A stretch of DNA of 64,000 bases, from the NCBI RefSeq assembly GCF_030028105.1, contig NC_092376.1, positions 186,364,438-186,428,437 of the forward strand, written 5' to 3'. This document shows, one piece after another, positions 15,176 through 60,292 of this stretch (positions within the stretch are counted from its first letter, which is position 1; each line of letters begins with the position of its first letter). The DNA is from Mobula birostris. Lineage: Eukaryota. The notes under the pieces were generated by a model, which did no database searches, had not been told where the DNA came from, and was given only the letters and a program-made list of their open reading frames with translations. A program made the translations under genes and the position numbers.

Positions 15176-16973
15176 CTCAAAGACACATATAGCACATATA
15201 ATTATGTTAGCAGTGAGCATAGAATCACACAAAAAGAAATAATCTAGCCCTAGTTCATGCGTGTCATGTCCTGTAGATCAATAGTGCATGGGATGTTGTC
15301 AGCAAGAGCAAGAGTGCAGCCACTGACAAATGCAATCCAGTTTGTCATCCACCAAGCAAACACTGGCAAGGAGCACCTGTGGAAGGGGCCACTACACCGT
15401 CTCCAGTGTTTCCTCTCCTGGGTGGCTGCAGCAGATCTCCCTTGACGTGAGGGCCTGGTCTGCACAACACAAGCGGCCATACAGCTCCCTCGTCTTCAGT
15501 CCACCAGTGAAACAGTGAACCAGATCCATAGTGTATCAATGTCAAACAGGGTCTTAAGATCACAGGAAAAACATATAAGACTATCACTCTCACCATTTGT
15601 TAGTCCTTGCACCAACTCTGACGCCTTCCTGTACCAGGTGGCAATGTGAGTATGTTTCTAATTTTCTCTATCAATATTTAGTGCATTTTATTGTTTTTCT
15701 GAGGGTTGTTAAGGGGCAAAAAAAAAACTGGGTACTATAAAAAATCCTTGAATTGTACAAACTCTAGTAGTTTTGTTTCCTAACTACTATAACATAAATA
15801 AGACATTACAGCAGGAGTAGACAAACCTCCCAACACAATTTTAGTTTTGCTTTTATCCTCGTATCTCTTGACTGAGCATTACTGTGCACGTGAATTCCAA
15901 AGATTCACAACCCTAAAAGTGAAAACATTTCTCTTGATTTCTAACTTGAAATGGCAGGCCTTTTATTTTGAGGCAATGGTCCTGATTTCTAGGATAGGCA
16001 ACTTTATCTGTTAAGTCCTAGCAATATTTTTTTTATAGTTTCAAATATGGTTGTCTCTCATTCAACCCTCTAATGTCTAGAGAATCTGGGCCATTCTGCT
16101 CAATACATAAAACAAAACATCATCTCACACCCGCATGTGCTGAGAGTTCTGATATAATACCAACCAAATAACTGAAACATTGACCATTCACTGCCCTCCA
16201 AAGGGACTTCTCTCCATACCTGACTGCTGAGTTCCTCCAGTACTCAGTATTTTCCTCTAAATTCAGTCTTTAATTGTACAAATATTTCAGTCTCCTTCCG
16301 GTGCTAAGGTTTTGGTATCTGCTTCTCAAACTCTCTTTCTCTTTTCCAGCTCTTTGAGCAAGATTTTGGTTACTGTTTCCTGTTGTACTCATTTGCCTGA
16401 AAATCAAGGTGGGTAGATGCCACTTGATAGCCCTGTGGGCCAGCCATAGTCTCCATTACTTTGCTGATGATTAAAAGGAGACAAACTTGACGGTAATCTG
16501 CTGGGTTGTATTTCCATTGCTCTTTATGAACAGGGCACATCTAGTAGATACCAGTACTGAAATGGTAATGAAACAGTTTGGCTAGATTAGTGCAGCTAGT
16601 TCAAGACTGCAGATCAGTTCAGGAACAATTAACATCTTCAACAATCAGCTTCCTGAACATCTGTGGATAATTTCTTTCACCTCAATACTGAAATGATCTC
16701 TAAATGCAGCCGATGGACTCACTTTCCAGGGCTCTATGATTCTGGTTCACAGTATTATTTATTACCTCTTTTTGTATTTTACAGTTTGTCTTCTTTTGTA
16801 CATTGGTTGTTTGTGCTTATTTGTAATTTTTTATGAATCTCATTGCATTTCTTTGTTCCACCAATTCAAGCAAGTTTCTACAGAAATACCACGGAGAGCA
16901 TATTAATTGGTTGCATCACCATCTGATATGGCCAGGACACCGCAGAGGAATGGAAAAGCTACTCAGTGTTGTA

Positions 16974-17103
16974 AACACGAGGAAATCTGCAGATGTTGGA
17001 ATCTCAAGCAATACACATAAAAGTTGCTGGTGAACGCAGCAGGCCAGGCAGCATCTCTAGGAAGAGGTACAGTCGACGTTTCGGGCCGAGAACCTTCGCC
17101 AGC
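16974..17103 (-). mobile_element. 130-bp Penelope-derived insertion with 13-bp TSD and hammerhead-like motif
   Basis: ACTCAGTGTTGTA at 16961-16973 and 17104-17116. Minus strand reads CTGGCGAAGGTTCTCGGCCCGAAACGTCGACTG. Confidence 0.85.
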
Positions 17104-17194
17104 ACTCAGTGTTGTAGACTATCATGGGCACTAGCCTTCCCAGCACTGAGGCCATATTCAAAAGGTGATGTCTCAAAATGGCGACATCCATAAT

Positions 17195-17825
17195 CTTCTC
17201 TGTCTCCATTTCTGGAGACAAACTGTCCACCAATATCTTTTATAAATCGACCAATTTCCATGGCTATCTTGACGATACCTCTTTTACCCTGTCTCCTATA
17301 AAAATGCTTTTCCCTTTTTCAGTTCCTTTATTTCGGCTGCATCTGTTCTCTGCATGAGGCTTTCTCTACCAGGACATCAGAGATATCCTCCATCTTCAAA
17401 GAACAGGATTTCCCTTCCTCCACCATAGATGCTGCCCTCACCTGCATCTCCTCAATTTCCTGTCCCTTTTTTTCTATTCCCCAATTTGACCTCTTACCTC
17501 CTCTCACCTGTCTATCAACTCCCCTTGGGTCTCCTTTTCCTTTCTTTTCTCCTATGGTCAATACTCCTTGCCTGTCAAATTCATTCCTCTACAGCCCTTT
17601 ACCTTTCCTACCCACCTGGTTTCAGCTATCAGCTTCCAGCTAGCCACCTTCCCCTCCCCCTGCCACCTTTTATTTTGTCATTTTCACGCTTCTTTTCTGG
17701 TCCTGGAGACGGGTCTCAGTCCAAAACATTGACTGATTATTAATTTCCATAGATGCTGCCTGACCTGCATTCCTCCAGTATTTTGCATATGTTGTGCTGG
17801 ATTTCCAGCATCTGTAGAATTTTTC
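17195..17825 (+). mobile_element. Penelope-like element fragment (RT thumb region plus 3' terminal repeat)
   Basis: Reads approximately SVSISGDKLSTNIFYKSTNFHGYLD...QFL..CICS, then a pyrimidine-rich UTR and the shared GATGCTGCCTGACCTGC terminus. Degenerate TSD ACATCCATAAT / ATGTCCATAAT. Confidence 0.8.
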
Positions 17826-19257
17826 ATGTCCATAATTAAGGACCCTATCATCCAGGACACGCGCTCTTCTCATTGTTACCATCGGGTAGGAGATACAGCA
17901 GCTTGAAGTCATAAAGTTAATGTTTTAGGAACAACTTCTTCCTCACCAACAAATTTTTGAATAGACAGTGAACTAACCCATGAACATTACTTCACTATTT
18001 TTCTTGCTCTCTTATTGGACTTATTTAGCTTTAATATATTTATACCTGCATATAGATGTTTCTCATTATAATTGATAGTATTTTTGTCTATTGACTGTAC
18101 AACAAACTTCACGACATATGCCAATAATATTAAACCTGATTGATTCTGAATCCCTGCAGGAAAATGCATCTAAGAGTAGTATATGATGACATATATGTAT
18201 TTTGATAATAAATGTACTTTGAACCTTTGAACTTTCAGACTTACCACTGAGTTGTAACCTGTTCCGGACGAGATATTAACTGTGAGCCCTCTTCTGGAGC
18301 AGGTAAAAGACCCAATGGCATGACATTGATGAAAGCTGGGAAGTTGTCTACGTATTCATGCTGGATATTTCAGTGTTTGACAGCTGAATCCTGATGAAAT
18401 ATCTTGGCCTGAAATGTCAACTGTTCATTCCTCTCCATGGACGCTGCCTGAACAGCTGAATTTTGTGTGTGTTTCTTTGGATTTCCATCATCAGCACATT
18501 GTCTCGTGTTCATTGCCTGAAAGTTGTTTCTTTTAGAGGTAGTTTGGTGAATCAAGTGTTCTGAAAGTCCTGCATTACATTTTTTTCTCATTTTGCTTTC
18601 CACATGTAGCTGGCAACCTCAGCTAGCATGCAGAATATTATTCATTTTAAAATATTCCCTTTTCTCCATTGACATTTTATGAGCTGCGTCTGATTCATTT
18701 GTATTTAAAATATAGCTCTGACCATGTTTTATTTAGTAGTCATGGTGTGAGAGTTGCAGAATGATAAAGAGTCTAATCAGCCTGAACAAACTGGTCAGGC
18801 ATCCTTCAATGTTGGCTACTCATCTACTCTGAATTCAACATAAAATATTAACAATACCCCGCTGAGTATTCAATAACAAATTAGGCCACTCTTAGCTGTG
18901 ACAAAACATACTAACAAACATGGGATTCCCAGAGATCCTAGATAATAACATCTTTTTCGTTGAGGAATTAGAGTTCACTGCGTGGAACTTGTGAACCCTG
19001 TAACCCCTGGATCTCAGACTCTGGAGCAAATCATCGCCTCATAGGCTCACCTCCAATGCATGGTTATTTGTGAAACAGAAGCTTGCAGCTTCTGCCATGT
19101 ATTTCTTGAATAACTTAATTGATATGCTGTCTTGTATTAAGGAAGATTTGATTGTGGAAATATTGAAGTCTAATATCTGGAAACACAAGAGGTTCTGCAG
19201 ATGCTGGAAATCCAGAATAACGCATACAAAATGCTGGGGAAATTCCAGCGCAGATGT

Positions 19258-19530
19258 CACGGTAGCATAATGGTTAGCGAGACAGCTCGGGGCTTCGGAG
19301 TTCAGAGTACAATTCCAGCATCATCTGCGGGTAGTTTGTACCTCCTCCTTGTGGAATCTGTGAGCTTTCCTCGGGTGCTCCAGCTTCCTCCCATGGCGTA
19401 GGATAATTGGTCATTGTAGATTGTACCATGATTAGGTTAGGGTTAAACGGGGTTGTCAGGGGTTGCTGGGGTGGGGTGGCTCAAAGGCCTGGAAGAACCT
19501 ACAGTGAGCTGTATCACTAAGTAAATAAAC
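19258..19530 (+). mobile_element. V-SINE/HE1-like SINE inserted into a Penelope-derived fragment
   Basis: A-box-like GGTAGCATAATGGTTAGC and a TTTCCTCGGGTGCTCCAGCTTCCTCCCA body. The host repeat resumes at about 19530. Confidence 0.65.
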
Positions 19531-20514
19531 TCAGCTGGTCAGGCAGCATCTATGGAAAGGAATAAACAGTCAACGTTTCAGACCGTTCATCAGGACTCCT
19601 TTCCTTTGATGCTTCCTGACCTATTGAGTTCCTCTAGCATTTAGTAGGTGCTAGTCTAATATTTGTGGCATTTCTTACTACATTCATAAGCCATACCCAT
19701 AACTAATTTCAGCAAAAATTGAGGACCAATTATAACAAAGTCAATTTGTTGCAGAAAAAACATCTGTTTCAATGTCTTTGTAAATGTCTTTGTGAAAAAA
19801 TCTACAGATGCTGGGAGTCTGAAATAAAAACTGATGATGCTGAAAATATTTAGCCGGTCAAGAAACATACATGGAGAAAGAAACCAAATTAATATTTCAG
19901 ATCAGTGACATTCCTTCAGATATAAGGTCACAAACTTGAAACATTAATTCTGTTTTCATCTCCATGATATTCTTGATTTTAAACACTGTCTATTTCTGTT
20001 TATAGATCATAATGTTAACAAAAGTATTTTTAATGCACACAAAACTACAGACATGATATTCTGAAGATGGTGGAAATCCACACACAAAATGCTGGAGGAA
20101 CATAGCAGATCAGGCAACATTTATGGAAATGAATAAATAGTCGTTGATTCGAGCCGACATTCTTCATCAGGACCAAGTACCACCAATCCTAATGAAGGGC
20201 CACCAGTAACTACACTTCCAGTCTCAAACAAAAATAGAAACTGTAGTTAAAACCCAGCAGGGCCTGCAGCACCTGAAGAAAGAAAGAGTCAATTTTTCTG
20301 GCAAGGCGTTGCAGGCCCAAAATGTAGACTATTTCTCCTTCCACACATGTTGGCTAACTGCAGATTTTTTCTCGGCACCTTCTATGTTTGTCTCAGATTT
20401 TTGACAGCTGCAGTTTCTTTTTTGATTTACACTTACAAAGAATAGTGGAATGTTCTGTGTGTGTGAAAAGTACTCCAGATATTTAGTTCTTTCCCACTAT
20501 CCTGAACTCAAAAT

Positions 20515-21090
20515 ATTGATGCAGCTACAAAGAAGACACAAAAGCAGATACGTTTCATTAGGAGTTAGAGGAGATTTTGTATGTTACCAAAGACACTCAC
20601 AGATTTCTACGGATATACCATGGAGAGCATTTAACTGGCTGAATCGCAGCTTGGATTACTGCACAGGATTGAAATAAGCTGCAGGGAATTGTAAACTTAG
20701 TCAGTTCCATCATGGGCACTAGCCTCCCCAGCATCTAAGATGTCTTCAAGGAACGATGCCTCAAAAAGATGGCATCCATCATTAAGGACACCCATACATT
20801 GGTCATACAAGTTCGTACCTTGTTTTCATTACTATCATCAGGAGGTGAAGAAGCCTAAAGACACACACTCAATGATTGAAGACCAGCTTCTTCCCCCTGC
20901 CATTTGGTTTCTGAATGAACATTGAACCCATGACATTACTTCACTACTTCTTAATTTTTATTTTTACAATACTTATTTAATTTAACAATTATATATATAG
21001 ACGTATCTGCATACATTTACAGTAATTTACATATTTTCTACTATTATAATTTCACTCGATATGCCGATGATATTAAACAACTCTGATTCT
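20515..21090 (+). mobile_element. Rex1/Babar-type 3' fragment
   Basis: DFYGYTMESILTG...ASIIKD...PAIWFLN motifs and a CTGATTCT tail. Confidence 0.8.
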
Positions 21091-21234
21091 ATTAATAAAA
21101 GTTTCATTTTATAATAAGACTAAGCACAATCATTGGTCAGTAATATACAAGTTTCTGTGTGTATCTTTCATCCAGCTGGACCATTGGCTCAGCTTGGTTA
21201 CTATCTTTATTTTCTTTCTTCCCTCTGGGATAGT

Positions 21235-21545: not shown

Positions 21546-21604
21546 TTTAGGTGTAAAGGATATACCCAATCAAGCCTGCATTTCACAACTTCTAGGTTCT
21601 TTTT

Positions 21605-24039: not shown

Positions 24040-24605
24040 TGTAAGACCCTAAGATACAGGAGCAGAATTAAGCCATTTGACCCATTGAGTCTCAAACACA
24101 AGAAAATCTGAAAATGCTGGAAGTCCAAAGCAATGCACAAAAAAGGCTGGAGGAACTTAGCAGGTCAGGCAGCATCTACGGAAAAGAGTCCTGAAGAAGT
24201 GTCTCACTTCAAAACATCGAAAGTTTACTCTTTTCTATAGATGCTCCTTGGTCTGCTGAGTTCCTCCAGTATTGTGTGTGTGTGGCCCATTGAGTCTGCT
24301 CTGTTATTCCATCATGACTGACTTATTATCCTTCTCAACCTCACTCTCCTGCCTTGTGTCCATAACCTTTGATGCCCTTACGATAGCCTGTCAACCTCCA
24401 CCTTAAATAAACCCAAAGATCGGACTTCCACAGCCATCTGTGACAACAAATTCCACAGATTCACCACCGTCTGGCTAAAGAAATTCCTTTTCATTTCTAT
24501 TTTAAAGGAAGTCTTTCTATTCTAAGGCAGTGCCCTCTAGTCCTAGATTCCCCTGCTACAGGAAACATCCTGTCCACATTCACATCCACTCTATCTGATC
24601 TTTCA
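24040..24605 (-). mobile_element. CR1 3' fragment containing a fold-back Penelope-derived insertion (24093-24285)
   Basis: CR1 tail and RNFFSQTVVNL motif. The insertion is flanked by CCCATTGAGTCT at 24081-24092 and 24286-24297. Confidence 0.85.
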
Positions 24606-25058
24606 AATAGTAGTATTATAACATGGTCACCACAGTGTTTTCAGCTACATGGTGTTATGTTTAGTTAAATTTTGATAATCTGGCATACTTCAGACTTTGG
24701 TAATACTGGACAGGTACATTTTTCTGGATTTTTAGATGTCATTCCTTAAATTCACAACAACTTTTAAATTGGTTTTTAAGCATATTACAGAATATTACAA
24801 TAAAATCTGTAGTAAATTTGGTAAGTTGCAACAGAGTGTTGGCACAGGGAACCCAGTGATTTTTGGACAAGCACAGGACCTGGAGAATCTCAAGTGCAAA
24901 TCCTGGTACGGCCAGGGGGGACCTGGTATTGATGAGGCTCAGGGGAGCCTGAGGCCCAGTGAATCTCAGAGAGGGAAAGAAATCACAAGGACTAGTGAGT
25001 CTTGAAAGAAATTGGTAAATATGACCTAGTATGTTGAACTAGCAAAATATATGACTGA

Positions 25059-25634
25059 CCATCGAGTACCTCTGCTCCATCCGCCACATCAGACAGGATC
25101 TCCCGGTTGCCACCCACTTCAATTCTGCTTTACATTCCCATTCGGGTACGTCCATACATGGCCTCCTCTACTGCCATGATGAGGCTAAACTCAAGTTGGA
25201 GGAGCAACACCTCATATACCGTCTGGGTAGTCTCCAGCCCCTTGGTACGAACATCGAATTCTCCAACTTCCGGTAATTCCCTCCCCCTCCCTTCCCCTAC
25301 CCCAGTTTCACTCTGTCCCCTCCCCCAGCTGCCTATCACCTCACTTATGGTTCCGCCTCCTTCTACTACCCATTGTGTTTTCCCCATTTCCTTCTTCACC
25401 TTTCCTGCCTATCCCCTCCCTGCTTCCCCTCCCCAACCACTTTATCTTTCCCCTTACTGGGTTTTCACCTTGAACCTTCCAGCCTTCTCCTTCCCACCCT
25501 CCCCCCACCTTCCTTATAGGGCCTCTGCCTCTTCCCTCTACAGTCCTGATGAAGGGTTCCAGCCGAAATGTTGACTGATCATTTCCACAGATGCTGCCCG
25601 ACCTGCTGAGTTCCTCCAGCGTGTTGTGAGTGTT
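25059..25634 (+). mobile_element. Penelope-like element 3' end (GIY-YIG endonuclease C-terminus plus terminal repeat), 11-bp TSD
   Basis: Reads QDLPVATHFNS..HSHS..SIHGLLYCHDEAKLKLEEQHLIYRLGSLQPLGTNIEFSNFR*. TATATGACTGA at 25048-25058 and 25635-25645. Confidence 0.9.
25541..25577 (+). ncRNA. Minimal hammerhead ribozyme motif (partly decayed)
   Basis: CAGTC-CTGATGA-AGGGTTCCAGCC-GAAA-TGTT-GACTG: stem I CAGTC/GACTG encloses the conserved core. Confidence 0.6.
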
Positions 25635-27070
25635 TATATGACTGAGTGACTGACTATCAGAGTTTTATTTTACTCCTGTGGACGCAACACAGGAATGTGT
25701 ACTATATAATGATATTCTGTGGTTAATTCATGAGGTTAAAATCTGGGAAATTACTCTCTGAATCATTATGATAAATTATAATAAATTTATGGTAAATAAT
25801 AAACTTCTCAAAACTTATTGCTGAGCTCCAACTTTTACACTAGCCTTGCACCATACCCTTAGAGAGAACATGCAGCTGGAACTTCTTACTACAGATGGTG
25901 CTGCACATTGGCAGGGCCATCCGTAGGTAGAAGGGCAGATAACACCCTAACCCTGCCACAAATTAATTACTTCATTTTTCACAATCTGTTAAGCCACACT
26001 CTTAGGCAGAACCGACTGCTCAAAAAATCAAAAATGTACAAGTATTTCTGAAAATACTTGGTAGTAATATTCAAAAACTTTCAACAATCTTAAAGCATTT
26101 AAACTGTAATTTCACAACAGAAGATTGACTATAGATCAATAAAAATTTAATAGCAACCAAATAATAAATAATCTGTAACAACAAATAATCCATACTGTAT
26201 GTTATAAATAATTTTTAATAATTGATTAATATGTAATATGTAATAGTGAATAACACTGCCTAATAAATAATATTACATTATTAATGAAAATTACATAATA
26301 TTTAACAACCTATAATTTTAAGAAAAGGAAACCTCTGAAAATATTTAAACATCCACAAGAAAGTAAATAAATCTAAATTGAAATTTATTCCTGACATGTC
26401 TTTATCTGCATTGAAATCAGTGGAGAATTGTCCTACAGTGGCTACGGCTCCGGCTCAGTATCAGAGGTCCTAGTTTCTATCTAAGGTTTTACACTGTCCC
26501 TTGGGTAGCTATTTCAATGTATTATCTCTGGAGTGCTGGTCTTGTTCAATCAACATTAAAAGCAGACAACGTGTTCATTAACACATTACTATTTGTGAAG
26601 CTATTCTGACAATGAGATAATTGTCAGCATTATCTAATTGTCTGTCCATAGATGTTGCCTGACCTACTGAGTTCCTCCAATATTTTGCATGTTACTCTAG
26701 CAATTTGGTTTTGTTTTTCTTACAGCAGGAGATATCCTGAAACGGATGTGAAAAACTACAAGGTTTTGTTTTCCTCTCTTTCACAATTACATCCAGAATT
26801 TTCTGTTTTTCACATCCCTTGAACAAAATTGAGTTTGGTGTTATTTATGTATAGGTACCATGGTTAACTTCACTCGTTGTAAGTGGGCTATTAAATATAC
26901 AAGCTATATTTTGAAATAAACCCATACTAACCATCAATGGACACCCAATGAGAGAACTGTCAAATCCAGACATCCCAACTCTCCCGGAAGTTCCGGGAGC
27001 CTCCCGCATATGAATAGTGGCTCCCTGATGCCCGCAAATTATATACAATATCACGGAAATCAATTTTTTT

Positions 27071-29129: not shown

Positions 29130-29510
29130 ATGGTGGCAGGATGGTGATACGTCTGAACCAAAGGAGATGCAATGTGCTCCTTGCATCCGCTAGCCTGCCA
29201 GTCGCCCTTGAACAAGGAGTAGCAGTTGCTTAGCTCCCTGATCAAGGTCACGTGAAGCCATGAGAGCCAGTGATAGATTAATCATAAGAGCAGATGCTGC
29301 ATATCACAATTCCTGTTTTTGCGCTCACTGACAGCAGGCAGTTGATCTCTGAAGAGTATTGATAATGGCTGGGGTCACCCGTCTTGTAAAGCCACTGCCC
29401 AGAAAAAGGCAATGGCAAACCACTTCTGTAGAAAAATTTGTCAAGAACAATCATTGTCATAAGACAATAATCATCGATATCATATGGCACTGCGCATAAT
29501 GATGATGACT
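29130..29510 (+). mobile_element. RTE-like non-autonomous element (copy 3)
   Basis: GGCAATGGCAAACCACTTCTGTAGAAAAATTTG and an (ATG)n-like tail. Confidence 0.7.
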
Positions 29511-29929
29511 TATTTATTTACTATTATTATTTGAGTTTTTTATATTTGCAGTTTGTCTTCTTTTGCACATTGGTTGTTTGTCTTTGTGTGTAGTGTTTCA
29601 TTGATTCTATTGCGTTTCTTTGTTCTACTGTGAATAACTACAAGAAAATAAATCGCATGGTGGTGTATGGTGCCATATAAACCTTAAAGTTACTTTCAAA
29701 TTTGTGGAGAGCTACCTAGTAAGAGATGGGAGAAAAATTCCTGTCCACCTTCCCTAGAAGAAAATGACGGCTTTCAAACGGTGAGTAAAGTGGGCACATA
29801 ATATTTATACCAACATCTTTTCCTTAATGTTTTATAATGCTATATTCATGCATAATGTATTTAATGAAATAAGAGTGGACAAACCACTCTCTTTAAGTAT
29901 AACGTATGGTGTCCGTATGTGCCACAGAG

Positions 29930-30330
29930 ACACAAGAGATTCTGAAGAGACGCACACAATATATTGGAGGAATTCAGCAAGTGAGGCAGCATCTATCAGG
30001 GGAATAAACAGATGATGTTTCTGGCTGAGACTCTTCATTAGGACCGGAAAGGAAGGGAGGATAAGCCAGACTGGTCACCTCTCAGCTTCTTACATCATTC
30101 CTTTTCATCCCTCCTCCCATACCCGCTTAACTTTCCCCTATCAACTGGATTTACCAACCACCTGCCAATTATATAACCGCCCCCTCCACCCTTCACTTTC
30201 TTTTTCTGACTTCCACCCCCTTTCTTTCATGTCCTGATGAGGGTATTTGGCCTGGAATGTAAACTGTTTATTTCCGTGTACAGTTGCTGCCTGAATCGTT
30301 GAGTTCCTCCAGCATTTTGTGGGTGCTACT
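29930..30330. mobile_element. Two Penelope terminal-repeat fragments in inverted arrangement
   Basis: Minus copy at about 29930-30070 and plus copy at about 30075-30330, each with a decayed CTGATGA..GAAA motif. Confidence 0.7.
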
Positions 30331-32322: not shown

Positions 32323-33810
32323 AAGTCAGTAGTTAGTAGTTAGCAGTGTAACAGACCCATTTGGCCCAACAGGCCCACACCAGTCAGCTGCACCCATGTG
32401 ACAAACTTCTTCTGTTCTTTATTCTTCTCTATTAATCTTCTCTCCTTCTTTGTCTCTATTTTCCTCCTTCCATCTTCACTTCCTCCTGAGCAAGGTTTAA
32501 GAAAGAGATCAGGAGAAATCCATGGAAGTTCAGCTGCCACTGCCAGTATTATCAGTAATAACCTGAGTCAGCGTACAGATTTGAACTGTTTCCTCTGACT
32601 GCCCAGGAAAATGTAAACAGACCTGGTTTGTTGCAATAGTAAAGGGCATGGAATAAAATCATTTGCAATAATTACTACACTCGATGCATTGATGTGTATT
32701 TTTTTCTCACTAATTACTGCCTTTGTGAATAAAATATCCAATTTATGTTAAACCATTTCCTCTGGGAGGCATTGACCCGGATAAGGGTGAATCTTGTTAA
32801 TGCATCCTGGAGCATGGTGAGCAACTTCCTTTAATAAAGGAGGCAGAGAACACCATCATATATGGCCAATAGGGAAATATTATTAATGTATGCTCATATT
32901 CACAATGATATCCGAATATTTACCATGCAAGATACTTTGTAATGATGCCAGTCAGTGTGACTTTTGACATTTTCATCTGCCAACAGCCTCTTCACCGTAT
33001 GCTCTAATTACATACATTTTATCTTATGTCTTGCTTTCTTTCAGAAGCTCATATTAAGTTGATCATTCACACATCTCTGCTGTTTGATGTTCTGATTTTC
33101 TTTTTACCCCTTTTCTCTTCCATTCTTTTATATTTCACCCATTTCCTTCCCCAACACCAACATTTCTCTGCTTTCTATTCCTTTCTGTGGATCCTTTCAT
33201 TAGACTGAATAACAGAGAAGATACAAATTTAAAAAAGACAACAATGGGGCATGGAAATCAGAAATAAAATAAGAAAAAGCTGAAAAGTTAGCACTTATGG
33301 AAAGAAAACCCATATCAGAACCACAAGAGAAGTAAGTTCAAATTAATTCAATTCAAGATTAATTGTCATTTCACCATACACAAATACCCATGAATACAGG
33401 GAAATGAGACAGCACTGCTCTGGGGCCAAAGTGCAAAGCACAGTACTATCAGTTATACACATGTAAAATAGCAAGCACATAAAGATATCAGTAAGATACA
33501 GCCATACAAAAAAACTAGTCGAGATATGAACCATAAATACTGCAGAAATCTGCAGTCGACCACAATGCAGCTTGTTTTCTGCCGTGCTAACGCTGTTGGA
33601 GGGGAAGGGGGCAGGTAGCACCAACTCCAGCCTGAACACCACCCACACCATACCCAGAGGAGTGAATGTTATGTTGCAGAGAAGGTCAGTTAGAAATGGA
33701 TAAGTCAAAAATAGATGAGTCAAAGGGAATTGACTCTATAACTTATCCCAACCACAACCTTAACCTCACCCTATCAGAAATATTTGCTTCTTCAGAGTCT
33801 CCTTCCACAG

Positions 33811-34532
33811 ATATACTGCGTCCGGTGCTCCTGATGCGGCCTTCTATATATTGGCGAGACCCGATGCAGGCTGGGAGACCGTTTCACTGAATTCCTAGGC
33901 TCTGACTGCCAGAGAAAGCAGGATCTCCCAGTGGCCACACATTTTAATACCACGTCCCATTCCCATTCTGATATGTCTATCCATGGCCTCCTCTACTATA
34001 AAGATGAAGCCACACTCAGGTTGGAGGAACAACACCTTATATTCCGTCGGGGTTGCCTTCAACTGATGGCATGAACATTGGCTTCTCCAACTTCCGTTAA
34101 TGCCCCACCTCCCCTTCGTACCCCATCCATTATTTATTTATTATTATTATTAAGTTTTTTTCTCTCTCTCCTTTTTCTCCCTCTGTCCCTCTCACTATAC
34201 CCCTTGCCCATCCTCTGGGCTTCCCCCCTCCCCTTTTCTTTCTCCCTAGGCCTCCCATCCCATGATCCTCTCATATCCCTTTTGCCAACCAACTTTCCAG
34301 CTCTGAGATCCACCCCTCCCCCTCCTGTCTTCTCCTATTATTTCGGACTCCCCCTCCCCCTCCTACTTTCAAATCTCTTACTATCTCTTCTTTCAGTTAG
34401 TCCTGACGAACGGTCTCGGCCCAAAACGTCAACTGTATCTCTTCCTATAGATGCGGCCTGGCCTGCTGCATTCACCAGCAATTTTTATGTGTGTTGCTTG
34501 AAATTCCAGCATCTGCAGATTTCTTTGTGTTT
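33811..34532 (+). mobile_element. Penelope-like element 3' end with GIY-YIG domain
   Basis: Reads IYCVRCS*CGLLYIGETRCRLGDRFTE...DLPVATHFN...RLEEQHLIFR. Hammerhead-like AGTCCTGACGAACGGTCTCGGCCCAAAACGTC at 34399-34430. Confidence 0.9.
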
Positions 34533-35215: not shown

Positions 35216-35356
35216 GCAAGCCAGGGCAGGACTATATGGATAGCAAGCCAGAGTAGTATAATATGGACAGCACACCAGGGCAGGACAATATAGATAGCAA
35301 GCCAGGCCAGTATAATATGGATAGCAAGCCAGGGCAGGACAATATGGATAGCAAGC
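35216..35356 (+). repeat. 27-bp minisatellite, 5 copies, alternating A/B units
   Basis: GCAAGCCAGGGCAGGACAATATGGATA-like units alternate GGAC and GTAT cores. Confidence 0.9.
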
Positions 35357-38030: not shown

Positions 38031-38394
38031 ATTACAAAAACATTTGCTTATTATTCAGTTCTACACTGGCTCCTGATCTTCTCATCTCAACCTGTGGAAT
38101 CTGTGCTGATGTGCTTTGATGGCTCGGGGCAGCTTGGTAACAGAGCGGTTACCTCAATGCTTTACAGCACCAGTGACAGGGATTCAATTCTCCCTGCTGA
38201 CTGTAAGGAGTTCTCCGCATTACTCCCTTTTGGAGTTGTCTTTGTCTGGTACTTCTACAAGGCCTCATTAAAGTGAACAGCGTCTCTAGGTTTAATGAAT
38301 TTAAACACCGTCCGCATCTTTATTGAATCTGAAACTTCCCTACAATATTAGGAAACAAAGTTTTACTTGCTTTCACAATGGGATGCATAACTTA

Positions 38395-39060
38395 CACAAG
38401 AGATTCTGCAGATGCTGGCAATCCAGAGGAACACACACACAAATTGTTGGAGAAACTCAGCAGGTCTGGCAGCATCTATGGAACAGTATAAAGAGTCAAT
38501 ATTGCGGGCTGAGAGGTCTCATCAGAACTGGAAAGAAAAGGGGAAGAATCCAGAATAAGAAAGCGAGGGGAGGGGAAGTGTGTCAAGCTAGAATGTGGTA
38601 GTTAAAATCAGGTGAGGGGGAAGCTGGATGGGTGGGGGAAAGGGGAATGAACTGATGAGCTGGGAGGAGATAGGTGGAAAAAGTAAAGGGCTGAAAAGGG
38701 ATCTGAAAGGAGTGTGGAATGGACCATGAGGCAAAGGGAACAAGGAGGAGCATGAGTTGGAGGTGATACGCAGTTGAGGAGAAGAGAAAGGGTAAGAGAG
38801 GAGCCATAATGAGGAATGCAAAAAGAAAGAAGGGAGAAGGGGGTAGAAATTATTAGAAGTTTGGGAAATTGATGTTCAAGCTGTCAGGTTGGAGGCTGCC
38901 CATTCGGATATTGAGATGTTGCTCCTACAACCTGAGAATGACCACATCATGGTAATAGAGGACGGACACGTTGGACTGGGAATGGGCAGTGGAATTAAAA
39001 TGATTGCCACTGGGAAATACAGTTGGGTATAGAATAAAGGTGCTCGACAAAACTGTCCCC
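38395..39060 (-). mobile_element. Penelope-like element 3' fragment
   Basis: Reverse-complement homolog of 25059-25634, including the GAGCAACATCTCAATATCCG block, purine-rich UTR and terminal repeat. Confidence 0.8.
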
Positions 39061-39654
39061 AATCATTAATTTCTTTTTATGAATTTGAGGCTTTGCCCAC
39101 GCTGCACTTTGCAAATAAAACAGATGATGTAGTCATTTTTCCAACTGGATGTGATTAAGTCAGTACTTGTTTATTTAGAGCAACACCTAATGCTCACTGA
39201 TGGTAAATACATCAAAAATATTGAAGCAGAATGTGTTCTGCTGCATTCCATTCACAGCTGATCAATGCGTTTTTTACAGAGTTCCAGCTCACTCATTCTG
39301 TGCCTCCTTATCGGTAAAAGACAATATGTCAGGAGCTCTTAAAATTAATAATTAGCCTGTCTTGGAAACAAGAGACTTTTGGACATATATTGACTATTTT
39401 CCAGATTTCTGTATATTGAGGAAGAATTGTATTACATGAATCAGAATTTGAATGGTGCCATTTTAATACTTCTGTACAAGGAGGATAGAATGTGAGACAA
39501 AAACATACCATACAAAATGAAAAATGAAAATAAAAGAAATAATGGACAAGTGATACCACAAAAGATTCTGCAGATGTTGGTATTCCAGAGTGACAAACAC
39601 AAAATGCTGGAGGAACACAGCAGGTCAGGCAGCATCTACGGAGGCTATTTACAT

Positions 39655-40155
39655 GATATGCAAGCTAGGGCAGTATGAAATGGAGAGCAAGCTGTTGCCC
39701 ACGCAGCTGATGAATCTGAAGAGACGGCAGAGACTAGTACAGTTTGGCACCAGCCGCATCACAGGAATTGACAGTCAGTGTTGAATTCAATGAAGGACTG
39801 CCTTAAGGACTCCAGCTCTGGATTTTTCCTCGGGCTTTACTCCTGAAGCCTTCCCCGTGAGTGGGTACAGAGTTTTCTTTCTCTTAGATGAGCTGCCGAG
39901 TACAGCTCTTGAACCTCATTTGCCCGAAGCAACTGGTTTTAAGCCTCCAGTAACTAGCCTTTGCCCCTTCTCCTGTCAGTAGAAATGGTTCCACCAGCTT
40001 CGTAGCTAAGCCACATGTGAAGGCCTGGAGCTAGACATGGATGTCAGAGAGTGTGTGAGACTGAGGCTACTGGGGTTGGGGTGGCTTTAATAGGTAGTGT
40101 TAGCTTTTCTCCATGACCAACCCCACCCCCAGCTATGACATCCTTAAGGAACCAG
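39655..40155 (-). mobile_element. RTE-type 5'UTR-derived element
   Basis: Homologous to 35325-36865, and shares the CAG(T/C)TTGGCACCAG block with the SINE at 61612-61918. Confidence 0.6.
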
Positions 40156-40829
40156 CAACACCTATTGAGAGGAACAAACAGTCAATGTTTCAGGCCAAGA
40201 GCCTTCACCAGGACTGGAAAAGCAGGGAGCAGAAGCCAGACTAAGAAGGTGGATGAAGGGGAAGGAGTACAAGCTGACAGATGATAGTTGGAACCAGGTA
40301 GGGACCAAGTGAAAGACTGGGAGGTGATCGATGGAAGAGGTAATGGGTTGAAAAAAAAGGGAATCTGACAGGAGTGGAGGGAGAAAGGGAAGGAGAAGGT
40401 GCACCAGAGGCAGGTAAGGAGAAGAGATGGGGCTAAGAGAAAATATAGTAACTTAGCATGTCATTTATCATTTACAAACACAAAATAAGTATCAAGTCAC
40501 AATTAGCAGTGTGAAATGGGACCTTTGTGATTTAGAATAAGGGAAACATTGTCTGAAATGACTCATTAATATCCAATTGCCTTCAGAGTTTGAGCTGTGT
40601 TGGATGTTTGTGTGGGTGGGGCTGATTTATGCTGGATGAAAGGAAAGTTAGGTTGATCAGCACTGGGTATGTGGGCAGGTGAAGCTGTCCTGTTAGTCTT
40701 CACCAATCTCACAGAGAACTGTAGACACATTTTATCACTGATTGGAAACATTGCTCCACGTCCTGTTCACAAAAGCTAATTGCTACTGATTCATTTCAGA
40801 AGGCTATTTATTACGTGCAATTTATGGTA

Positions 40830-45179: not shown

Positions 45180-47040
45180 GAAGTACTGATTCCCTGAAAA
45201 TGGCACTGCAGGTAGTCAAGGTTTTCAGCACACTGAATTTTGTTATGCTGGACATTAAATATAAAAGCTGGTATGTAATTTTGCATTTGTGGAGGGCAGT
45301 AGTGAGGCCACATTTGGAATACAGTAACACAGGAGGTTCTGCTGACCCTGGAGATCCAGAGCAACACATCACATAGTTTGGCACAGACGAGATGGACTGG
45401 AGGGCCTGTTCCTGTGCTATCGTTTTCCATGACTCTAAAATTCTGGGGGAGCTCAGCGGGCAAGGCAGCATCAATGGAAAGGAATAAACAGTTGCCATTT
45501 CAGGTCGAGACCCTTCTTCAGAGTTGGAAAGGAAGGAGGAAGACATCAGAATAAAAATGTGGGACACGGGGAAGGAGGCTAGCTGGAAGATGATGGAAGG
45601 ACTGGAGAAGAAGTAACCTGATAGGAGAAAGTGAAGAAGGAGGAGCACATCGGCAGGCAACGAGAAGAGATAAGATACGTGGTTGTGATAGCAAATTCTG
45701 GTGAACAGTCTTGGTCCTAAACATCAGTATTTTATTCTGCTCTATAGATCAATAGTTCAATCATTCCATTTAATATCAAGAATATATACAATATAAAACC
45801 TGAAATTCTTGATTTTAGATGCTGCCTGACTTGCTGACTTCCTCCTGCATTCCATGTGTTCCATTTGGAATACTATGTTCAGTTTTAGTCACCCTGCTAT
45901 GGGAAAGGTGCCACTTAGCTGAGTGCATAAGAGTGCGGAAAAAATCCTGCAGAGAAGTGCAGAATAATATGTGTTGATGTTACCAGTACTTGAGGGATTG
46001 AGTTATAGGGAAGTTTTGGACAAGATAGTATATTATTCCTTGGAGCACAGGAGACTGAGGGGTGATCTTATAAACATGTATAAAATCACAAGGGACATAG
46101 ATAGGGTGATGCATACAGCCCTTTTGCCAGGGCTGAGGAATCAAGAACTAGAGGGCATAGATATAAGGTGAGAGGGAAACTTGAAGGGAAACTTTTTTCA
46201 CACAGAGGGTGATGTTTGAATGCAACAAACTGCCAGAGAAGTGGATGAGGCCAGTTGGGTAAGAATATTTAACAAGCATTTGGATAGGTAATTCAAAGTA
46301 AATTTATTATCAAGTTACATATATGTCACCATCTATAACCCTGAGATTAATTTTCTTGTGGGCATGATCAATAAACCTATAGAATAGTAACTATAGCAGG
46401 ATCAATGAAAGATCAACAAGAATGCAGAAGACAACAAACTGTGCAATTGCAACTGTAAATAAAAAGCTATAAATAACGAGATCTGGAGAAAGTGAGATAA
46501 AGAGTCTTTAATGATCATTGGTCGAGGGAACATTTCAATGATGGGGCAAGTGAGTGTACTTATCTCCTTTTATCCAAGAGCCTGATGGTTGAAAGGTAGA
46601 AACTGTTCTTGAACTTGGAGGTGTGAGTCCTGAGGCTCTTATATCTTGTACATAATGGCAGCAGTGAGGAGAGAGCATGGCCTGAATGTTGTGTCTCTAA
46701 CGATGGATGCTGCTTTCCTATGACAGCATTTCATGTAAATGTACTGAATGGTTGGGAGGGCTTTATCCATGATGGTCTGGCCCGAATCCATGACCATTGT
46801 TTGCATTTTCTTGTGGGCATGATCAATAAATGTTCAAAGGCATTGGTGTTTCCACACCAGGCCATGATGCAGCCAGTCAATATACTCTCCACTACACCTC
46901 TCGATACATGGAGAAGAAAAGTTTAGTGTCATATGGGACATATGTGGGCAACTAGAACTGGAGTAGATGGACAGCTTGATCAGTATGGATGATTTGAGCC
47001 AAATGACCTGTTTCCATGCTTCATGAATCTGTGACTCTGA
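45180..47040 (+). mobile_element. Fragmented CR1 pieces with nested Penelope and Rex1/Babar insertions
   Basis: ORF 45971..46171 reads LEGLSYREVLDK...LRGDLI. Penelope pieces at about 45335-45700; Rex1/Babar on the minus strand at about 46290-46900; CR1 tail at about 46930-47040. Confidence 0.7.
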
Positions 47041-49815: not shown

Positions 49816-49849
49816 CACCTTCCACTATCCTAAGTTGAGTTGAGTTGTC

Positions 49850-50707: not shown

Positions 50708-51459
50708 CAGTGAAACCCCGTTATAACGCGATCGTTTGGGCCCATAAAATGTCATAGCAAAAAAAGCGGGGTCACGCTAAATCAGGGTTGTTGTTACTGT
50801 AGAAATTAAAACACAAATTAATTTTTAGTAAAGCTTTTTAATACACAAAACAACAAATAAAAACATACAAGAATATTAGCAATCATCATTTACAGTTTAT
50901 TTCTTAAAAAAATGATCGAGTGTTCCTTGCTTGAACGTAGCATGTCACTGGCTGCGAGCGAAATCTAGAATGCTTCTGAGTTGAAGGTTCCAGCCACGAA
51001 GTGTTGAATCTGGTATCCTGAGGTCTTGTGCAACTTGAGTCTGAATTTTAGTCCTGATCACGTCAAGTGCACGAAGCTTATCTTTCACAGAAAAAGATTT
51101 TCTTTTTCTAGCAGTTTGTTCCATTATGAGCAAAAAAAAGTCCAATGACTCACACAAAATGCTGGTGGAATGCAGCAGGCCAGGCAGCATCTGGTTGAGA
51201 CCCTTCGTCAGGACTAACAGTAAAAAAAGATCGTAAGAGATTTGAAAGTGGGAGGGGGAGGGAGAGACCCAAAGTGATAGAAGAGAGGAGGGGGAGGGAT
51301 GAAGCCAAGAGCTGGGAAGTTGATTGGCAAAAGGGATACAAGGCTGGAGAAGGGGGAGTATGGATTGACATGGACATGGATGGACATGGAGTTCAGTGAC
51401 TCATCGCATTATATTCGAATTTGTGTTAAATCGGGGCACGTAAAATCAGGGTTTCACTA
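50708..51459 (-). mobile_element. Tigger/pogo DNA transposon derivative inserted into the Gypsy LTR
   Basis: TIRs CAGTGAAACCCCGTTATAACG / CGTAAAATCAGGGTTTCACTA. CENP-B-type HTH MEQTARKRKSFSVKDKLRALDVIRTKIQTQVAQDLRIPDSTLRGW. Confidence 0.85.
51153..51389 (-). mobile_element. Penelope-derived fragment inside the Tigger element
   Basis: Terminal repeat with GACCCTTCGTCAGGACT; degenerate 14-bp TSD AGTCCAATGACTCA / AGTTCAGTGACTCA. Confidence 0.8.
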
Positions 51460-51504
51460 TAGTTGGGAGGAGACTAAAAAGTGTCTGCATGAGTAGTACT
51501 GACG

Positions 51505-55850: not shown

Positions 55851-56267
55851 GTCCTCATTCAACAGAGGTGTCACAGGTTGGATCATTTTGTGGGAACCCC
55901 ATCATGCAACAAATAATTCTGGGAATGCTCAGTGGGTCAAGACGTCTGTGAAAAGAGGAACGGGGTCAACAATCTTTGGCCTGTAACATTAAGCCATCGA
56001 CTGATTATAGTGACTCAGCAAAGGTATTTTAGTGGTAAAATTAAAGAGTAAGATCATCCCTTGAAATCATCAGACCTATGCCGTCTTACCCTACACTGTC
56101 CTAGGCATGGACTTCCACAGGAATTCATGATAAGAATACAGAAATGTGGTGCAGAGGAGAGTAGGACGCCATTCAGCATAAGTAGCCTGTTGTGTTCATA
56201 AAACCACTTTGACAACTGGCGGGGCCCTGCCTCTGCAAAGTTCACCAGCTGTCAAGGCTGTCAGCAA

Positions 56268-56413
56268 CACACATAAAAGTTGCTGGTGAATGCAGCAGGC
56301 CAGGCAGCATCTCTAGGAACAGGTGCAGTCGACGTTTCAGGCCGAGACCCTTCCTCAGGACTAACTGAAGGAAGAGTGAGTAAGGGATTTGAAAGTTGGA
56401 GGGGGAGAGGGGG
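56268..56413 (-). mobile_element. 146-bp Penelope-derived insertion with 13-bp TSD
   Basis: AGGCTGTCAGCAA at 56255-56267 and 56414-56426. Confidence 0.9.
56327..56362 (-). ncRNA. Minimal type-I hammerhead ribozyme motif with intact core
   Basis: Minus strand reads AGTC-CTGAGGA-AGGGTCTCGGCCT-GAAA-CGTC-GACT: stem I AGTC/GACT, CUGANGA, stem II, GAAA, palindromic ACGT and a GUC cleavage triplet. Confidence 0.75.
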
Positions 56414-56749
56414 AGGCTGTCAGCAATATTGTCCATGATATTCACAAAAAAAATCCAAGTCATTTGGGACCAGTTACAAATCTTAAATGGTTGATAAAAA
56501 AAAGTACAAAAATCTATTTTGAGTAGTTAATCCACTAGAACATACAAACACACAGATCACACACACACTCACGCACACACAAACGCGGGAAGATACATAG
56601 AGACATGTAAACACACACACAAACAGAAAAACACATGCACACACTCAAACAATTAAATCAAATTAAAACTGTACAGATGTATTTTTGAATGCTTATGCGT
56701 TTCAACTTTGTATTAGTCCTACATCCATTCTGGCTTTGATTCATACAAC

Positions 56750-57122
56750 CATAGGAACAAAAGACATTGGAGCAGAATTAGGCCATTCAGCCCATCAAGT
56801 ATGCTCTGGGATTCTATCATGGCTGATTTATTGTTCCCTGGGTATCATGGCAGAGAATTCCACAGAACCACCACTTCACTTGGCTATAGGGATTCATCTT
56901 CATCCTTAATCTATAGGGACATCCAAATCTCAGTCTGTGCCCTCTGGTCCTGAACTCCCTCACTACAGGAAATATCCTCCCCACGTCCACTCCATCTAGG
57001 CCTTTCAATATTTGAAAGGTTTCAATGAGATTCCACCCTCCCCCCACCATTTCTTCTAAGCTCCTGTAAATACAGGTCCAGAGCCATCAAATGCTCCTCA
57101 TACATTAACCCTTTCATTCCCA
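56750..57122 (-). mobile_element. CR1 3' fragment
   Basis: GMKGLMYEEHLMAL...LIETFQILKGLDGVDV...RTRGHRL. Confidence 0.85.
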
Positions 57123-59699
57123 GTACACCTTCACTGCCCACTCCCATGCTACCACATCTTCTGTAGGGAGTTTGTACACTCTCCCCATGAAACATGCACA
57201 TTTCCTCTGGATGCTCCTGTGTTCTCCAAAAGTCCAAAGATCTACCAATTAATAGGTTAATTAGTCAGCTTTGAAACAGTATGAATTGCTCATCTTCCTA
57301 AAACACTGTAGCTTGTAATATAACTGACACATTTTGGTGGCTTGCTCAACGGTTAGAAAAACGGTGATCAAACAGTGAAATTGCTGGACCAGTAAATCCA
57401 GAAGTCTGGGCTAGTAGTGCATACAACCAAGTCCAACTACTACCAGGGAAACCAAAGAATTTAAATTCAGCTTATAAATTCAAAGGCAAATCAAAGTAAA
57501 GTTACTATCAAAGTACATACATGTTACCAAGTATTACCTTGAGATTCATTTTCTTTCGAGCATTTACAGGAAAATACAATAGAATTTATTTTTGAAAATT
57601 ACATTTAAACAAAGACTCACAACCAACGTATAAAAGAAGGCAAATTGTGTAAATAAAAACAAAATATGACTGAGTTGTATAGTCCATGACAGTGAGTTTG
57701 CAGGTTGTGGAATCAGCTCAGTGTTATGATGAGGAAAGTTGTCTGTGCCATTTCAGAGGCCTGATGGCTGAAGGGTAATAACTGTTCCTCAACATGATGG
57801 TGTGAGAACTAAGACTCCTGTACATCCTGCCTGAAGGTAGTAGCAAGCTAATTTGAAACAATAGCTAGCTTTAATATGGTGATTTTTTTCCAAACTCATC
57901 TAGTTAATTAATGTGCTTCTTGGGAGGAATCTGCTGTCCTCGCCCAGACTTTGCTATGATGCAACTCAGGCCAATCTCATGTAAATACCTCCTGAAATGG
58001 GCAAGTAAGTCAGTCAGTTCTAGATGCCTCATGCTTACATTCTCGAGGATAATCAGAGGTGAGCTATCAACTCTGGTCAATCCAGTGACATCCAGATTCT
58101 GAAGAGCAAGCTGAAAGTAGAAAGTCAATTACATAGGGTTTACATAATGCTAAAATGAGAAAAGAAATTGTAACTTCTTACCTAAAGGCACCAACAAACC
58201 AAATAAATTATTATTGCAATAAGGTTGCTTCACAGACGATTCTACTAACAGTTGATTTTTATTGCAGATTTATTTAATTAACTAAATGTAATTCATAGTG
58301 TGTTTTGAACTCATGGTGTCTTCAGCTCATTAGTCCAAGCCCCTGTGTTATCAACTCATCAATTTAACCAGAATGTTATTGTTCCCATAGTTCTAAAGTG
58401 GAGAGAGAGCTGATGGGGATGGTGATAAAAGAGCAATTTTTTTTAAAATATAGCAACCTGAGCCAGAAATATGTTAAAATGCATATTGCTAAAAGCAAAT
58501 GACCACAAGCTAAATGCTAACGCTGGATTTGGAGAGATCAAGGAAAAAGGGCACTTTAAAAGTACATTCATATGTGCAATATGCAATAAAGTTGCCTGCT
58601 GTTCTTGTGGTGTTATTAAAATATGTATTAAAAAAGCTAGCATATATATAATGGTATCAAATTTTCAAAATGTCTCCAAGTCCTTCATACCTTAAATTAC
58701 TTTGCAAGTATAATAACCTCCTAAAGTTCTGAAAGGAATTTTTTTCACCTTCTTAATATGTAAGCTTAAATACTCAGATCTGAAATTGAGAGTCATAAAC
58801 TAGGCATTACATAGGAGGATTTAAATCTTCCCTTGGTCCCAGCCCCCATGACTCTGAAATCTTTATTCACCCTATAATTAAAGAAAAGATTAAGCATTAG
58901 CTTTATTTATCACATGTACATTGAAGCATCGAAGCATACAGTGTAATGTATCATTTGAGTCAAATCAATTCAATGAGGATTGTGTTGGTCAGCCAGCAAG
59001 ACACTCACTCAATGATTCAGAAATAGCTTTATCTCCTCTGCCATACAAATTGTGAATGAACGTTGAACCCATGAACACAATCTCATGACTTTTTTGTTTC
59101 TATTTTGCACTAATTATTTAACAATTTAATATAAATATATTCACTGTAATTCACATTTTTTCTGTTATTATGTATTACATTGCATTGTTGCAGCAAAGAC
59201 AACAAATTTCAGAGCATGTGCTGTTGATATTAAACCTGATTCTGAAGTGTCATCACACGTTCAGTGCTAACATTATCAAGCCCATAACTCATTAACCCTA
59301 ACTGTACACCTTAGGAATGTAGGATGAAACTGGAGGTCCTGGAAGAAACCTACGTGATTATGGGGAGAATGTACAAACTCCTCATAGGCCTCAGTGGGTA
59401 TTGAACCCTGATCAGTGATCCTGGCACCTTAAAGCATTGTGCTAACCACTATGCTACCGTGCCGCCACCTTAGCCTGGCCACTTTGACTCCCTACGAGGT
59501 AAGTCTTACACTCTAATTATGCCGCTATACCTCACTATTTATTTGTGTTTCCAATTTCCAGCATTGTCACACAGCATTGAAATGGGCATTTTGGCTTATC
59601 AAATCCATGGTGACCATCAAGCACACAGCTACATCTATATTATATTAACCCCACATTCTCATCAACCTGCCACTCACCGATACGTCACCGTATATGCCG

Positions 59700-60292
59700 T
59701 TTAATATGATGTGGGCTATCATGGTCTATCCATGACCATGATTGTTCTTGGCATATTTTTCTACAGAAGTGGTTTGCCAATGCCTTCTTCTGGGTAGCAT
59801 CTCTACAAACACAAAATAATCTGCAGATGCTGTGATCAAAGCAACACTTTCAGTACGCAGGATGAACTCAGCAGGTCGGGCACCGTCAGTTAGAAACGAT
59901 GAGTCGACGTTTCAGGCCGGAACCCGACGAAAGGTTCCGGCCTGAAACATCGACTCATCGTTTCTAACTGATGTTGCCCGACCTGCTGAGTTCATCCTGC
60001 GTACTGAAAGTGTTGCTAGCATCTCTACAAGACAAGTGATCCCCGCCATTATCAATACTCTTCAGAGACTGTCTGCCTGCTGCCATTGGTTGCATAGCCA
60101 GCACTTGGGATATGCACCATCTGCTCATATGGCCATCCACCACTTGCTCCCATGGCTTCATGTGACCCTGATTAGGGGTGGCGGAGGGAGCTAAGCAAGT
60201 CTACACCTGGCCCAAGGGTGACCTGCAGGCTAGCAGAGGGAAGGAGTGCCTTACACCTTCTTTGGTAGAGACGTATCTCCACCCCGCCATCC
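59700..60292 (-). mobile_element. RTE-like non-autonomous element (copy 4), host of the fold-back insertion
   Basis: Colinear with 9540-9875 once 59809-60030 is removed. Confidence 0.75.
59809..60016. mobile_element. Fold-back Penelope-derived insertion with 14-bp TSD
   Basis: Inverted arms 59840-59924 and 59933-60017 (3 mismatches in 85 bp). TAGCATCTCTACAA at 59795-59808 and 60017-60030. Confidence 0.92.

Follow-up and report, generated by a model that had tools for sequence, protein, structure and literature searches.

In Penelope-like elements (PLEs), 5' truncation, inverted pseudo-long terminal repeats (pLTRs) and 3' extensions are known (PMC8969392), and new insertions have a reported median length of 128 bp (PMC9977147). 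Here we describe short PLE insertions in a 64,000-nucleotide stretch of the genome of Mobula birostris (NC_092376.1, positions 186,364,438 to 186,428,437), the whole of which we call the window. The Neptune PLEs (PMC8557442) resemble these copies in a C-terminal GIY-YIG domain with two cysteines, a CX2-5CxxC linker, 5' truncation, a hammerhead in the pLTR, an inverted adjacent copy and a 30–40 bp tail at one end only. Target-site duplications (TSDs) of PLEs are described there as variable in length, whereas those detectable in the window are mostly 11–14 bp; Neptune is linked there to microsatellites, whereas the targets here are ordinary DNA and old repeats. A hot spot of 5' ends, which we observe here, is not mentioned for Neptune in the available portion of PMC8557442.

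Two other elements are informative about integration. The protein of Poseidon_Ac from the green anole nicks and extends both target strands, begins reverse transcription at two internal sites, which set the tail, and copies to the 5' end of its template, such that 5'-shortened RNA gives shorter products; a dimeric form is predicted for it, and ribozyme cleavage is not required (PMC11167929). The two internal starts, the use of both strands and the uncleaved RNA template are the points of likeness to the window. Poseidon_Ac belongs to a clade without a linker zinc finger, unlike the PLEs in the window, and has an ATT cleavage preference, whereas no clear motif was seen by eye at nine sites here; its TSD length was not found in the available portions of PMC11167929 or its supplementary texts. 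Penelope of Adineta vaga (PMC3846280) likewise has solo and inverted pLTRs, a tail that is optional, junctions with microhomology and some copies that lack a TSD, but its TSDs are 8–10 bp, compared with mostly 11–14 bp here. Penelope TSDs are put at about 10–15 bp in reviews, a range that our literature search did not confirm. No match was found for that range, for cartilaginous-fish PLE hammerheads, for Neptune TSDs in sharks or for PLE twin priming, in a search that covered mostly non-subscription papers; PMC12602865 and PMC12910113 contain nothing about TSDs.

The minimal hammerheads of metazoan PLEs (PMC4209133) share with the copies in the window the bulged base before helix II, the G10.1-C11.1 pair, a short helix I and a palindromic helix III. 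They are mostly single motifs from truncated PLEs, with some close pairs on opposite strands, as is also the case here; clustering of 5' ends at helix I is not described in the portion of PMC4209133 at hand. Metazoan non-LTR retrozymes (PMC7229834; bioRxiv 10.64898/2026.07.22.740005) are alike in their type-I hammerhead, their short non-coding unit related to a PLE pLTR and their TSDs of more than 4 bp. They are defined as head-to-tail repeats with two or more hammerheads, which are processed to monomers or circles, whereas the window contains single or head-to-head stubs with ends away from the cleavage site. The original prediction for this DNA had proposed that a hammerhead-bearing, retrozyme-like short RNA is mobilized here and regarded it as the best candidate here for an under-described system. 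The class, the ribozyme, the tail and the inverted copies are already published, and this is not a new system.

A profile made from the window's own copies gave 33 hits, which were grouped as 21 insertions comprising 27 arms after pieces split by later insertions had been joined; the profile of the PLE terminal repeat covers about 9.5% of the window. Part of this stretch is present in 20 of 24 listed sequencing-run entries, with no RNA run among those listed. Weak hits at 16173-16243, 19796-19919 and 31938-32015 were dropped from all counts; together with 20297-20424 they appear to belong to a subfamily of this terminal repeat that is older and more distant. From sequence comparison, the insertions are 3'-terminal stubs of PLEs, which we assign to the Neptune type. 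We consider it fairly probable that the stubs were written by the element's own reverse transcriptase (RT)/GIY-YIG protein from its own uncleaved transcript. The features observed are the TSDs, the two classes of 3' ends, the continuity with coding sequence, the nesting of short with long copies and the cluster of 5' ends at helix I.

Five of the 27 arms (17184, 25048, 33790, 38394 and 63144) run into RT or GIY-YIG coding sequence. The frame at 25061-25270 is 71–93% identical to proteins named from Hypanus, Mobula and Hemitrygon (10 hits), indicating a stingray-like host. These ray homologues combine a GIY-YIG domain that contains two cysteines with RT motifs and a C-x(3-4)-C-x2-C linker. An RT followed by a C-terminal GIY-YIG in one open reading frame (ORF) is found in named ray and shark homologues, and as fragments only in the window. 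The Pfam GIY-YIG score of the homologues is 18.8–20.9 bits, just below the cut-off of 22.6. The two cysteines of the CCHH motif, located between GIY and YIG, are present at 33811-34062 in the window as well as in the homologues. The CX2-5CxxC linker is present in homologues P0002 and P0006, and a stop-broken version lies at 63153-63335; this mark is common to Neptune and Nematis and thus not exclusive (PMC8557442). The assignment to Neptune is made because of the linker and the vertebrate host. Intact relatives of 800–1000 amino acids were found at 27–52% identity. The PLE identity and the partner with a GIY-YIG endonuclease (EN) in the original prediction are supported. We also considered an ORF start inside the terminal repeat, but by eye the frame is not common to the subfamilies and it is not claimed. 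A protein-guided scan of metagenomes gave three weak loci, none with a terminal repeat.

In a tree built from all 27 arms except the weak 20250 pair (25 arms), short copies fall together with long ones in at least three subfamilies. The short copies 16974 and 56268 group with the EN-bearing 34532 (ultrafast bootstrap, UFBoot, 99) and 59809/60016 group with the EN-bearing 25634 (UFBoot 90), while deep nodes are poorly supported. There is no clade of short copies, and thus nothing in the tree, read with that reservation about its deep nodes, that resembles a non-autonomous family of its own.

To analyze the TSDs, element edges were fixed from homology and flanking repeats of up to 30 bp were allowed; repeats shorter than about 8 bp cannot be told from chance in this test. 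A repeat score of at least 8 was obtained at 9 of the 21 insertions, compared with 12 of 400 in the null (3%), and a score of at least 10 at 7 of 21, compared with 0 of 400. The nine insertions, with the features inside them, are as follows.

16961..17116, minus strand: subfamily A stub of 130 nt (16974-17103), from the helix I edge to a tailed 3' end; 13-bp TSD at 16961/17104.
17184..17836, plus strand: internally deleted copy with an RT-thumb remnant (17196-17463), pyrimidine tract, decayed hammerhead and long end.
19167..19665, both strands: head-to-head pair of a tailed arm (19182-19597, minus) and an untailed arm (19595-19652, plus); 13-bp TSD with one transition.
19246-19527: later insertion of 280 nt that splits the tailed arm of the 19167 pair; we take it to resemble a short interspersed element (SINE).
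24081..24297, both strands: head-to-head pair of a tailed arm (24095-24188, minus) and an untailed arm (24187-24285, plus); TSD of 12 bp, or 15 bp with one mismatch, in a host repeat.
25048..25645, plus strand: subfamily C copy of 576 nt, 5'-truncated, with C-terminal GIY-YIG coding sequence (25061-25270) followed by pyrimidine tract, hammerhead region and short end; 11-bp TSD.
25273..25543, plus strand: predicted 271-nt spliceosomal intron of the PLE, with a GT donor at the ORF end, pyrimidine tract and AG acceptor in helix I.
45311..45873, both strands: head-to-head pair in a CR1-type RT remnant, exact 12-bp TSD; both arms were split later, by unrelated inserts of about 65 nt (45370-45433 and 45750-45815).
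51139..51403, minus strand: 237-nt stub with part of the pyrimidine tract and a short end; a 29-nt deletion took out the GAAA half of the hammerhead core; 14-bp TSD with two transitions.
56255..56426, minus strand: 146-nt stub with a short end, its 5' start about 52 nt upstream of the core; 13-bp TSD, the first five bases of which (AGCAA) equal the element's continuation.
56326..56363, minus strand: the sole intact minimal type-I hammerhead in the window by a strict descriptor, inside the 56255 insertion.
59795..60030, both strands: head-to-head pair of a tailed arm (59809-59925, minus) and an untailed arm (59923-60016, plus); 14-bp TSD.

All seven repeat pairs listed in the original prediction (at 16961, 17184, 24081, 25048, 51139, 56255 and 59795) are present, with 0, 2, 0, 0, 2, 0 and 0 mismatches, and enclose inserts of 130, 631, 193, 576, 237, 146 and 208 nt. 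Two further TSDs were found, at 19167/19653 and 45311/45862. At four of the nine sites, removal of the insert and one repeat copy gives a through-alignment to paralogous empty host repeats (five paralogues for 24081, three for 59795, one for 45311, and one for 16961 with an 11-nt gap just after the site), indicating that the repeats at these four sites are true duplications. The proposed range of 11–14 bp holds for eight of the nine detectable TSDs. The exception is 17184, where the TSD is probably 8 bp (17187/17829) rather than a CpG-decayed 11 bp, because the supposed CpG is neither CG nor TG in any of three paralogues of the target, and the additional bases agree with the CpG-decayed end of the element itself. 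No TSD is longer than 15 bp at any of the 21 insertions. Across the nine sites a loose T after the nick could be seen by eye, but it is biased by edge calling and was rejected as a target motif.

The 24081 and 59795 insertions are not single copies of the ribozyme-containing terminal repeat, as had been described for several short copies, but head-to-head pairs; 25048 retains the GIY-YIG coding end and 17184 the RT-thumb remnant.

The 5' ends were numbered with the C of the CUGA box as 0, which places the predicted hammerhead cleavage at +28. The 5' end lies downstream of 0 in eight of the 27 arms. The other 19 reach position 0; eight of these stop between −5 and 0, and 11 continue. With an assumed background of 0.8–2% per nucleotide, estimated from the stretch between +45 and 0 plus an upper bound, the binomial p of this cluster is 1e-6 to 7e-4, prior to correction for scanning. 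The spot corresponds to the 5' strand of helix I. It lies after the pyrimidine tract, and its last bases are AG in 6 of 11 copies (one of them after a 1-nt shift). The short copies do share a preferred 5' start, a point in favour of a retrozyme, but the cluster lies about 30 nt upstream of the cleavage site, near which 0–1 of the 27 arms end. Having many 5' ends at the helix I edge and not at the predicted cut site makes a copying stop likely and argues against a mobile RNA cut by the ribozyme.

The same edge is predicted to be a 3' splice site. Two of the four long copies have a GT donor at the ORF end, and the named host isoform models P0002 and P0008 leave the PLE frame at exactly that donor residue. 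Together, the pyrimidine tract, the AG, the donor and the isoform break lead us to predict that the PLE carries an intron of 243–271 nt with its acceptor in helix I. The bases at the helix I edge also fit an initiator consensus. In D. virilis, the 5' end of helix I is where the intron has been mapped to end (PMC4209133), as predicted here, and an intron and promoter of Penelope are reported in PMC2377424. A spliced RNA is not the template, since none of the eight clustered arms has the exon end upstream (2–7 of 20 matches); the pyrimidine tract is also kept in all four long copies that are continuous through that region.

Ray isoform models of VKORC1L1, ABHD14A, ATP synthase C3, LAMP3 and DIPK1C (proteins P0002, P0003, P0008, P0010 and P0011) begin or end in the PLE GIY-YIG tail. 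This suggests that alternative exons are often supplied by the PLE, by way of the splice donor that follows its ORF; annotation artefacts would also give such models.

Fourteen copies give a majority line that is a textbook minimal type-I hammerhead, with the core boxes, the bulged base, the G10.1-C11.1 pair, helix I and the palindromic helix III. Its pairing is satisfied in 73.8% of cells, compared with 20–37% when the structure is slid, the structure itself having been read from the majority line. Covariation is not above shuffles (34/500), as expected because the copies decay neutrally. Rfam at the gathering threshold gave no hits in the window, which is expected for minimal hammerheads, and the folding of four short units does not surpass that of their shuffles (z −0.49 to +1.43), weak evidence either way. 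A hammerhead motif scan of metagenome contigs gave no matches. In viral contigs three motif matches were found, but the profile extends them only to 21–25 nt and they were taken as chance. The hammerhead, as predicted from sequence, is real at the level of the family. The description of all these copies as hammerhead-bearing holds for the family majority and not copy by copy, because only 56255 has an intact motif and 51139 has lost part of the core. In these copies the hammerhead is likely a passenger.

The 3' ends, which had been described as variable, do not vary freely but are bimodal, with classes near +95 and +130 that lie about 35 nt apart. The longer class is the published 30–40 bp PLE tail. 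Among single copies nine are tailed, five are untailed and one has lost its end. Six of the 21 insertions are head-to-head pairs, and in the five whose outer ends are readable, one arm is tailed and the other untailed (p about 0.02).

Priming by microhomology had been proposed on the basis of the AGCAA overlap between target and element end at 56255. The overlap is real and, at 5 nt, is the only notable one (p about 0.03). In the younger subfamilies 5 of 6 junctions overlap by at least 1 nt by eye, as a retrozyme primed in this way would have it, but over all thirteen 3' junctions the count is five, which is at chance level (p 0.35). There is no rule, and microhomology priming is occasional at most.

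Based on these observations, a mechanism can be proposed for writing of the stubs by the element's own protein. The endonuclease would nick both target strands 11–14 nt apart, sometimes about 8. Reverse transcription would then start at one of two internal sites of the RNA, which lie about 95 and about 130 nt beyond the hammerhead core, and the complementary DNA (cDNA) would often end at the helix I edge, giving stubs of 100–135 nt, either because the RNA begins there or because a factor bound at the predicted 3' splice site halts the RT. The cDNA end would be joined to the other target end. Alternatively, both nicks may prime, one for each start site, and the two cDNAs may join via 1–3 nt of microhomology; such double priming would yield a head-to-head pair with one tailed and one untailed arm.

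For the pairs alone, fold-back self-priming of a single cDNA, or an antisense template, would offer another route. Self-priming has been proposed for rotifer PLEs, the inversions of Adineta vaga being ascribed to it (PMC3846280). The arms at 59795 are 95% identical over 85 nt and enclose an 8-nt loop, and two independent pairs have like junctions (19595-19597 and 24187-24189), each linking the helix I edge to about +35 with an identical 3-nt overlap. However, at 24081 and 59795 the arm that reaches helix I is the untailed one, and copying it would give no 35-nt tail on the other arm; a tailed plus an untailed arm in every readable pair likewise speaks against fold-back. We consider fold-back unlikely as the pair-forming step.

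A second alternative, which we judge to be quite improbable, is plain random 5' truncation, in which the helix I cluster would be an artefact of detection, arising from a conserved core beside low-complexity DNA, or would reflect passive fall-off where the RNA:DNA hybrid weakens at the entry to the pyrimidine tract. It is normal for PLE insertions to be very short, the remaining 19 arms end anywhere from +43 to deep in the ORF, and local alignments tend to stop at the edges of conserved blocks. Against this reading, five of the eight clustered arms directly abut the TSD or the opposite arm, and a sixth does so within about 20 nt. The pyrimidine content upstream is 0.77–0.90 in the 11 continuing arms and 0.27–0.53 in the stopping arms, with no intermediate, and the next upstream ends lie at −29 and −52, such that there is no gradual tail-off. 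The cluster also survives removal of the weak 20250 pair (7 of 18, p 1e-5 to 3e-3). Random truncation of the autonomous element had been named as an outcome that would speak against a separate mobile RNA; the short copies indeed form no clade of their own, but the truncation is not purely random.

The remaining alternative, that a short RNA is excised by the hammerhead, perhaps circularized, and mobilized in trans, draws on the derivation of animal retrozymes from PLE pLTRs and their report in one chondrichthyan (bioRxiv 10.64898/2026.07.22.740005, in a set that may include this family), but it is very improbable and largely refuted within this window, where there are no head-to-tail repeats with at least two hammerheads in 64 kb (the nearest same-strand cores, 577 and 688 nt apart, belong to separate insertions), a single stub has one ribozyme at its 5' end and cannot excise a unit, 0–1 of the 27 5' ends lie near the cleavage site and the 3' ends lie at about +95 and +130, and short copies nest with EN-bearing ones.

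Several points weigh against writing of the stubs by the element's own protein. Every count comes from one 64-kb window and 21 insertions, and the 5' edges of old copies were placed by alignment and by eye. Two of the eight clustered arms have no TSD or opposite arm to fix the edge, and a cluster start at −4 is not separable from one at −2 with these data. The window contains no intact partner element and no full-length pLTR-ORF-pLTR copy, and none of the 38 longer homologues (801 amino acids or more) carries a cartilaginous-fish name. The in vitro support comes from a Poseidon and not a Neptune element. The arms of four old head-to-head pairs differ by 24–40%, like unrelated copies (25.5 ± 6%), and therefore are silent on whether one or two templates were used. 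Finally, 12 of the 21 insertions have no detectable TSD. Old copies diverge from each other by the same 25.5 ± 6%, at which 1.9 of 15 old insertions would be expected to keep a 13-mer with at most one mismatch; three are observed, so decay can explain most of the missing TSDs. It is not the explanation for the young copy at 33790. The 12 insertions are the following, with the TSD search negative unless stated otherwise.

33790..34532, plus strand: long subfamily A copy with the GIY-YIG motif region (33811-34062) and a tailed end.
38394..39087, minus strand: old long copy with an EN remnant and a tailed end.
63144..63945, plus strand: old long copy, short-ended, with a remnant of the EN and a Cys-rich linker.
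6654..6785, minus strand: old tailed stub; a possible decayed 14-bp TSD (11/14 by eye) was left out of the count.
12392..12500, minus strand: old tailed stub.
18387..18510, plus strand: old tailed stub whose 5' start is the helix I edge.
20049..20175, minus strand: old tailed stub whose 5' start is the helix I edge.
20250..20424, both strands: very old head-to-head pair with weak profile hits.
26643..26695, plus strand: old untailed stub.
29928..30327, both strands: old head-to-head pair of a tailed and an untailed arm; a doubtful TSD at 29889/30326, about 25 nt off the edge, was not counted.
39556..39643, minus strand: old tailed stub.
40155..40419, minus strand: old copy with the pyrimidine tract; its 3' end is lost.

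The 16961 and 17184 insertions lie 68 nt apart within one old host repeat, and a paralogue of this repeat is found at 20604-20860. An interspersed repeat at 9517-9781, 14824-15088, 29281-29460 and 59691-60177 (about 80% identity over 160–200 nt) is the target of the 59795 insertion. RT remnants of long interspersed elements (LINEs) lie at 41908-42711 and 10617-11096, the first of which matches Pfam RVT_1 (E 5.7e-15); presumably both are CR1-type. Minisatellites are present at 35216-35356 (period 27 nt), 36188-36396 (50/30 nt) and 40821-40932 (53 nt).

A more specific form of the proposal, which we put forward tentatively and would rate at somewhat below even, is that the dominant insertion of shark and ray Neptune elements is a programmed unit of 100–135 nt and no random truncation. 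A dimeric RT/GIY-YIG protein would make staggered cuts at a constant spacing, roughly one helical turn and a further 2–3 nt, use two priming sites 35 nt apart, one per strand, and come to a discrete stop at the front edge of the hammerhead, which would be the 3' splice site. If this is true, the edge of the ribozyme would mark either the 5' end of the RNA or a roadblock formed by a splicing factor, and such a strong stop would help explain the pLTRs, the tails and the retention of the intron. How PLEs integrate and what role their hammerheads have are open questions in the field, and ray genomes are dense in copies. The proposal offers three rules that can be counted: the stagger of 11–14 nt, the inverted pairs of one tailed and one untailed arm, and the stop at helix I and the splice acceptor.

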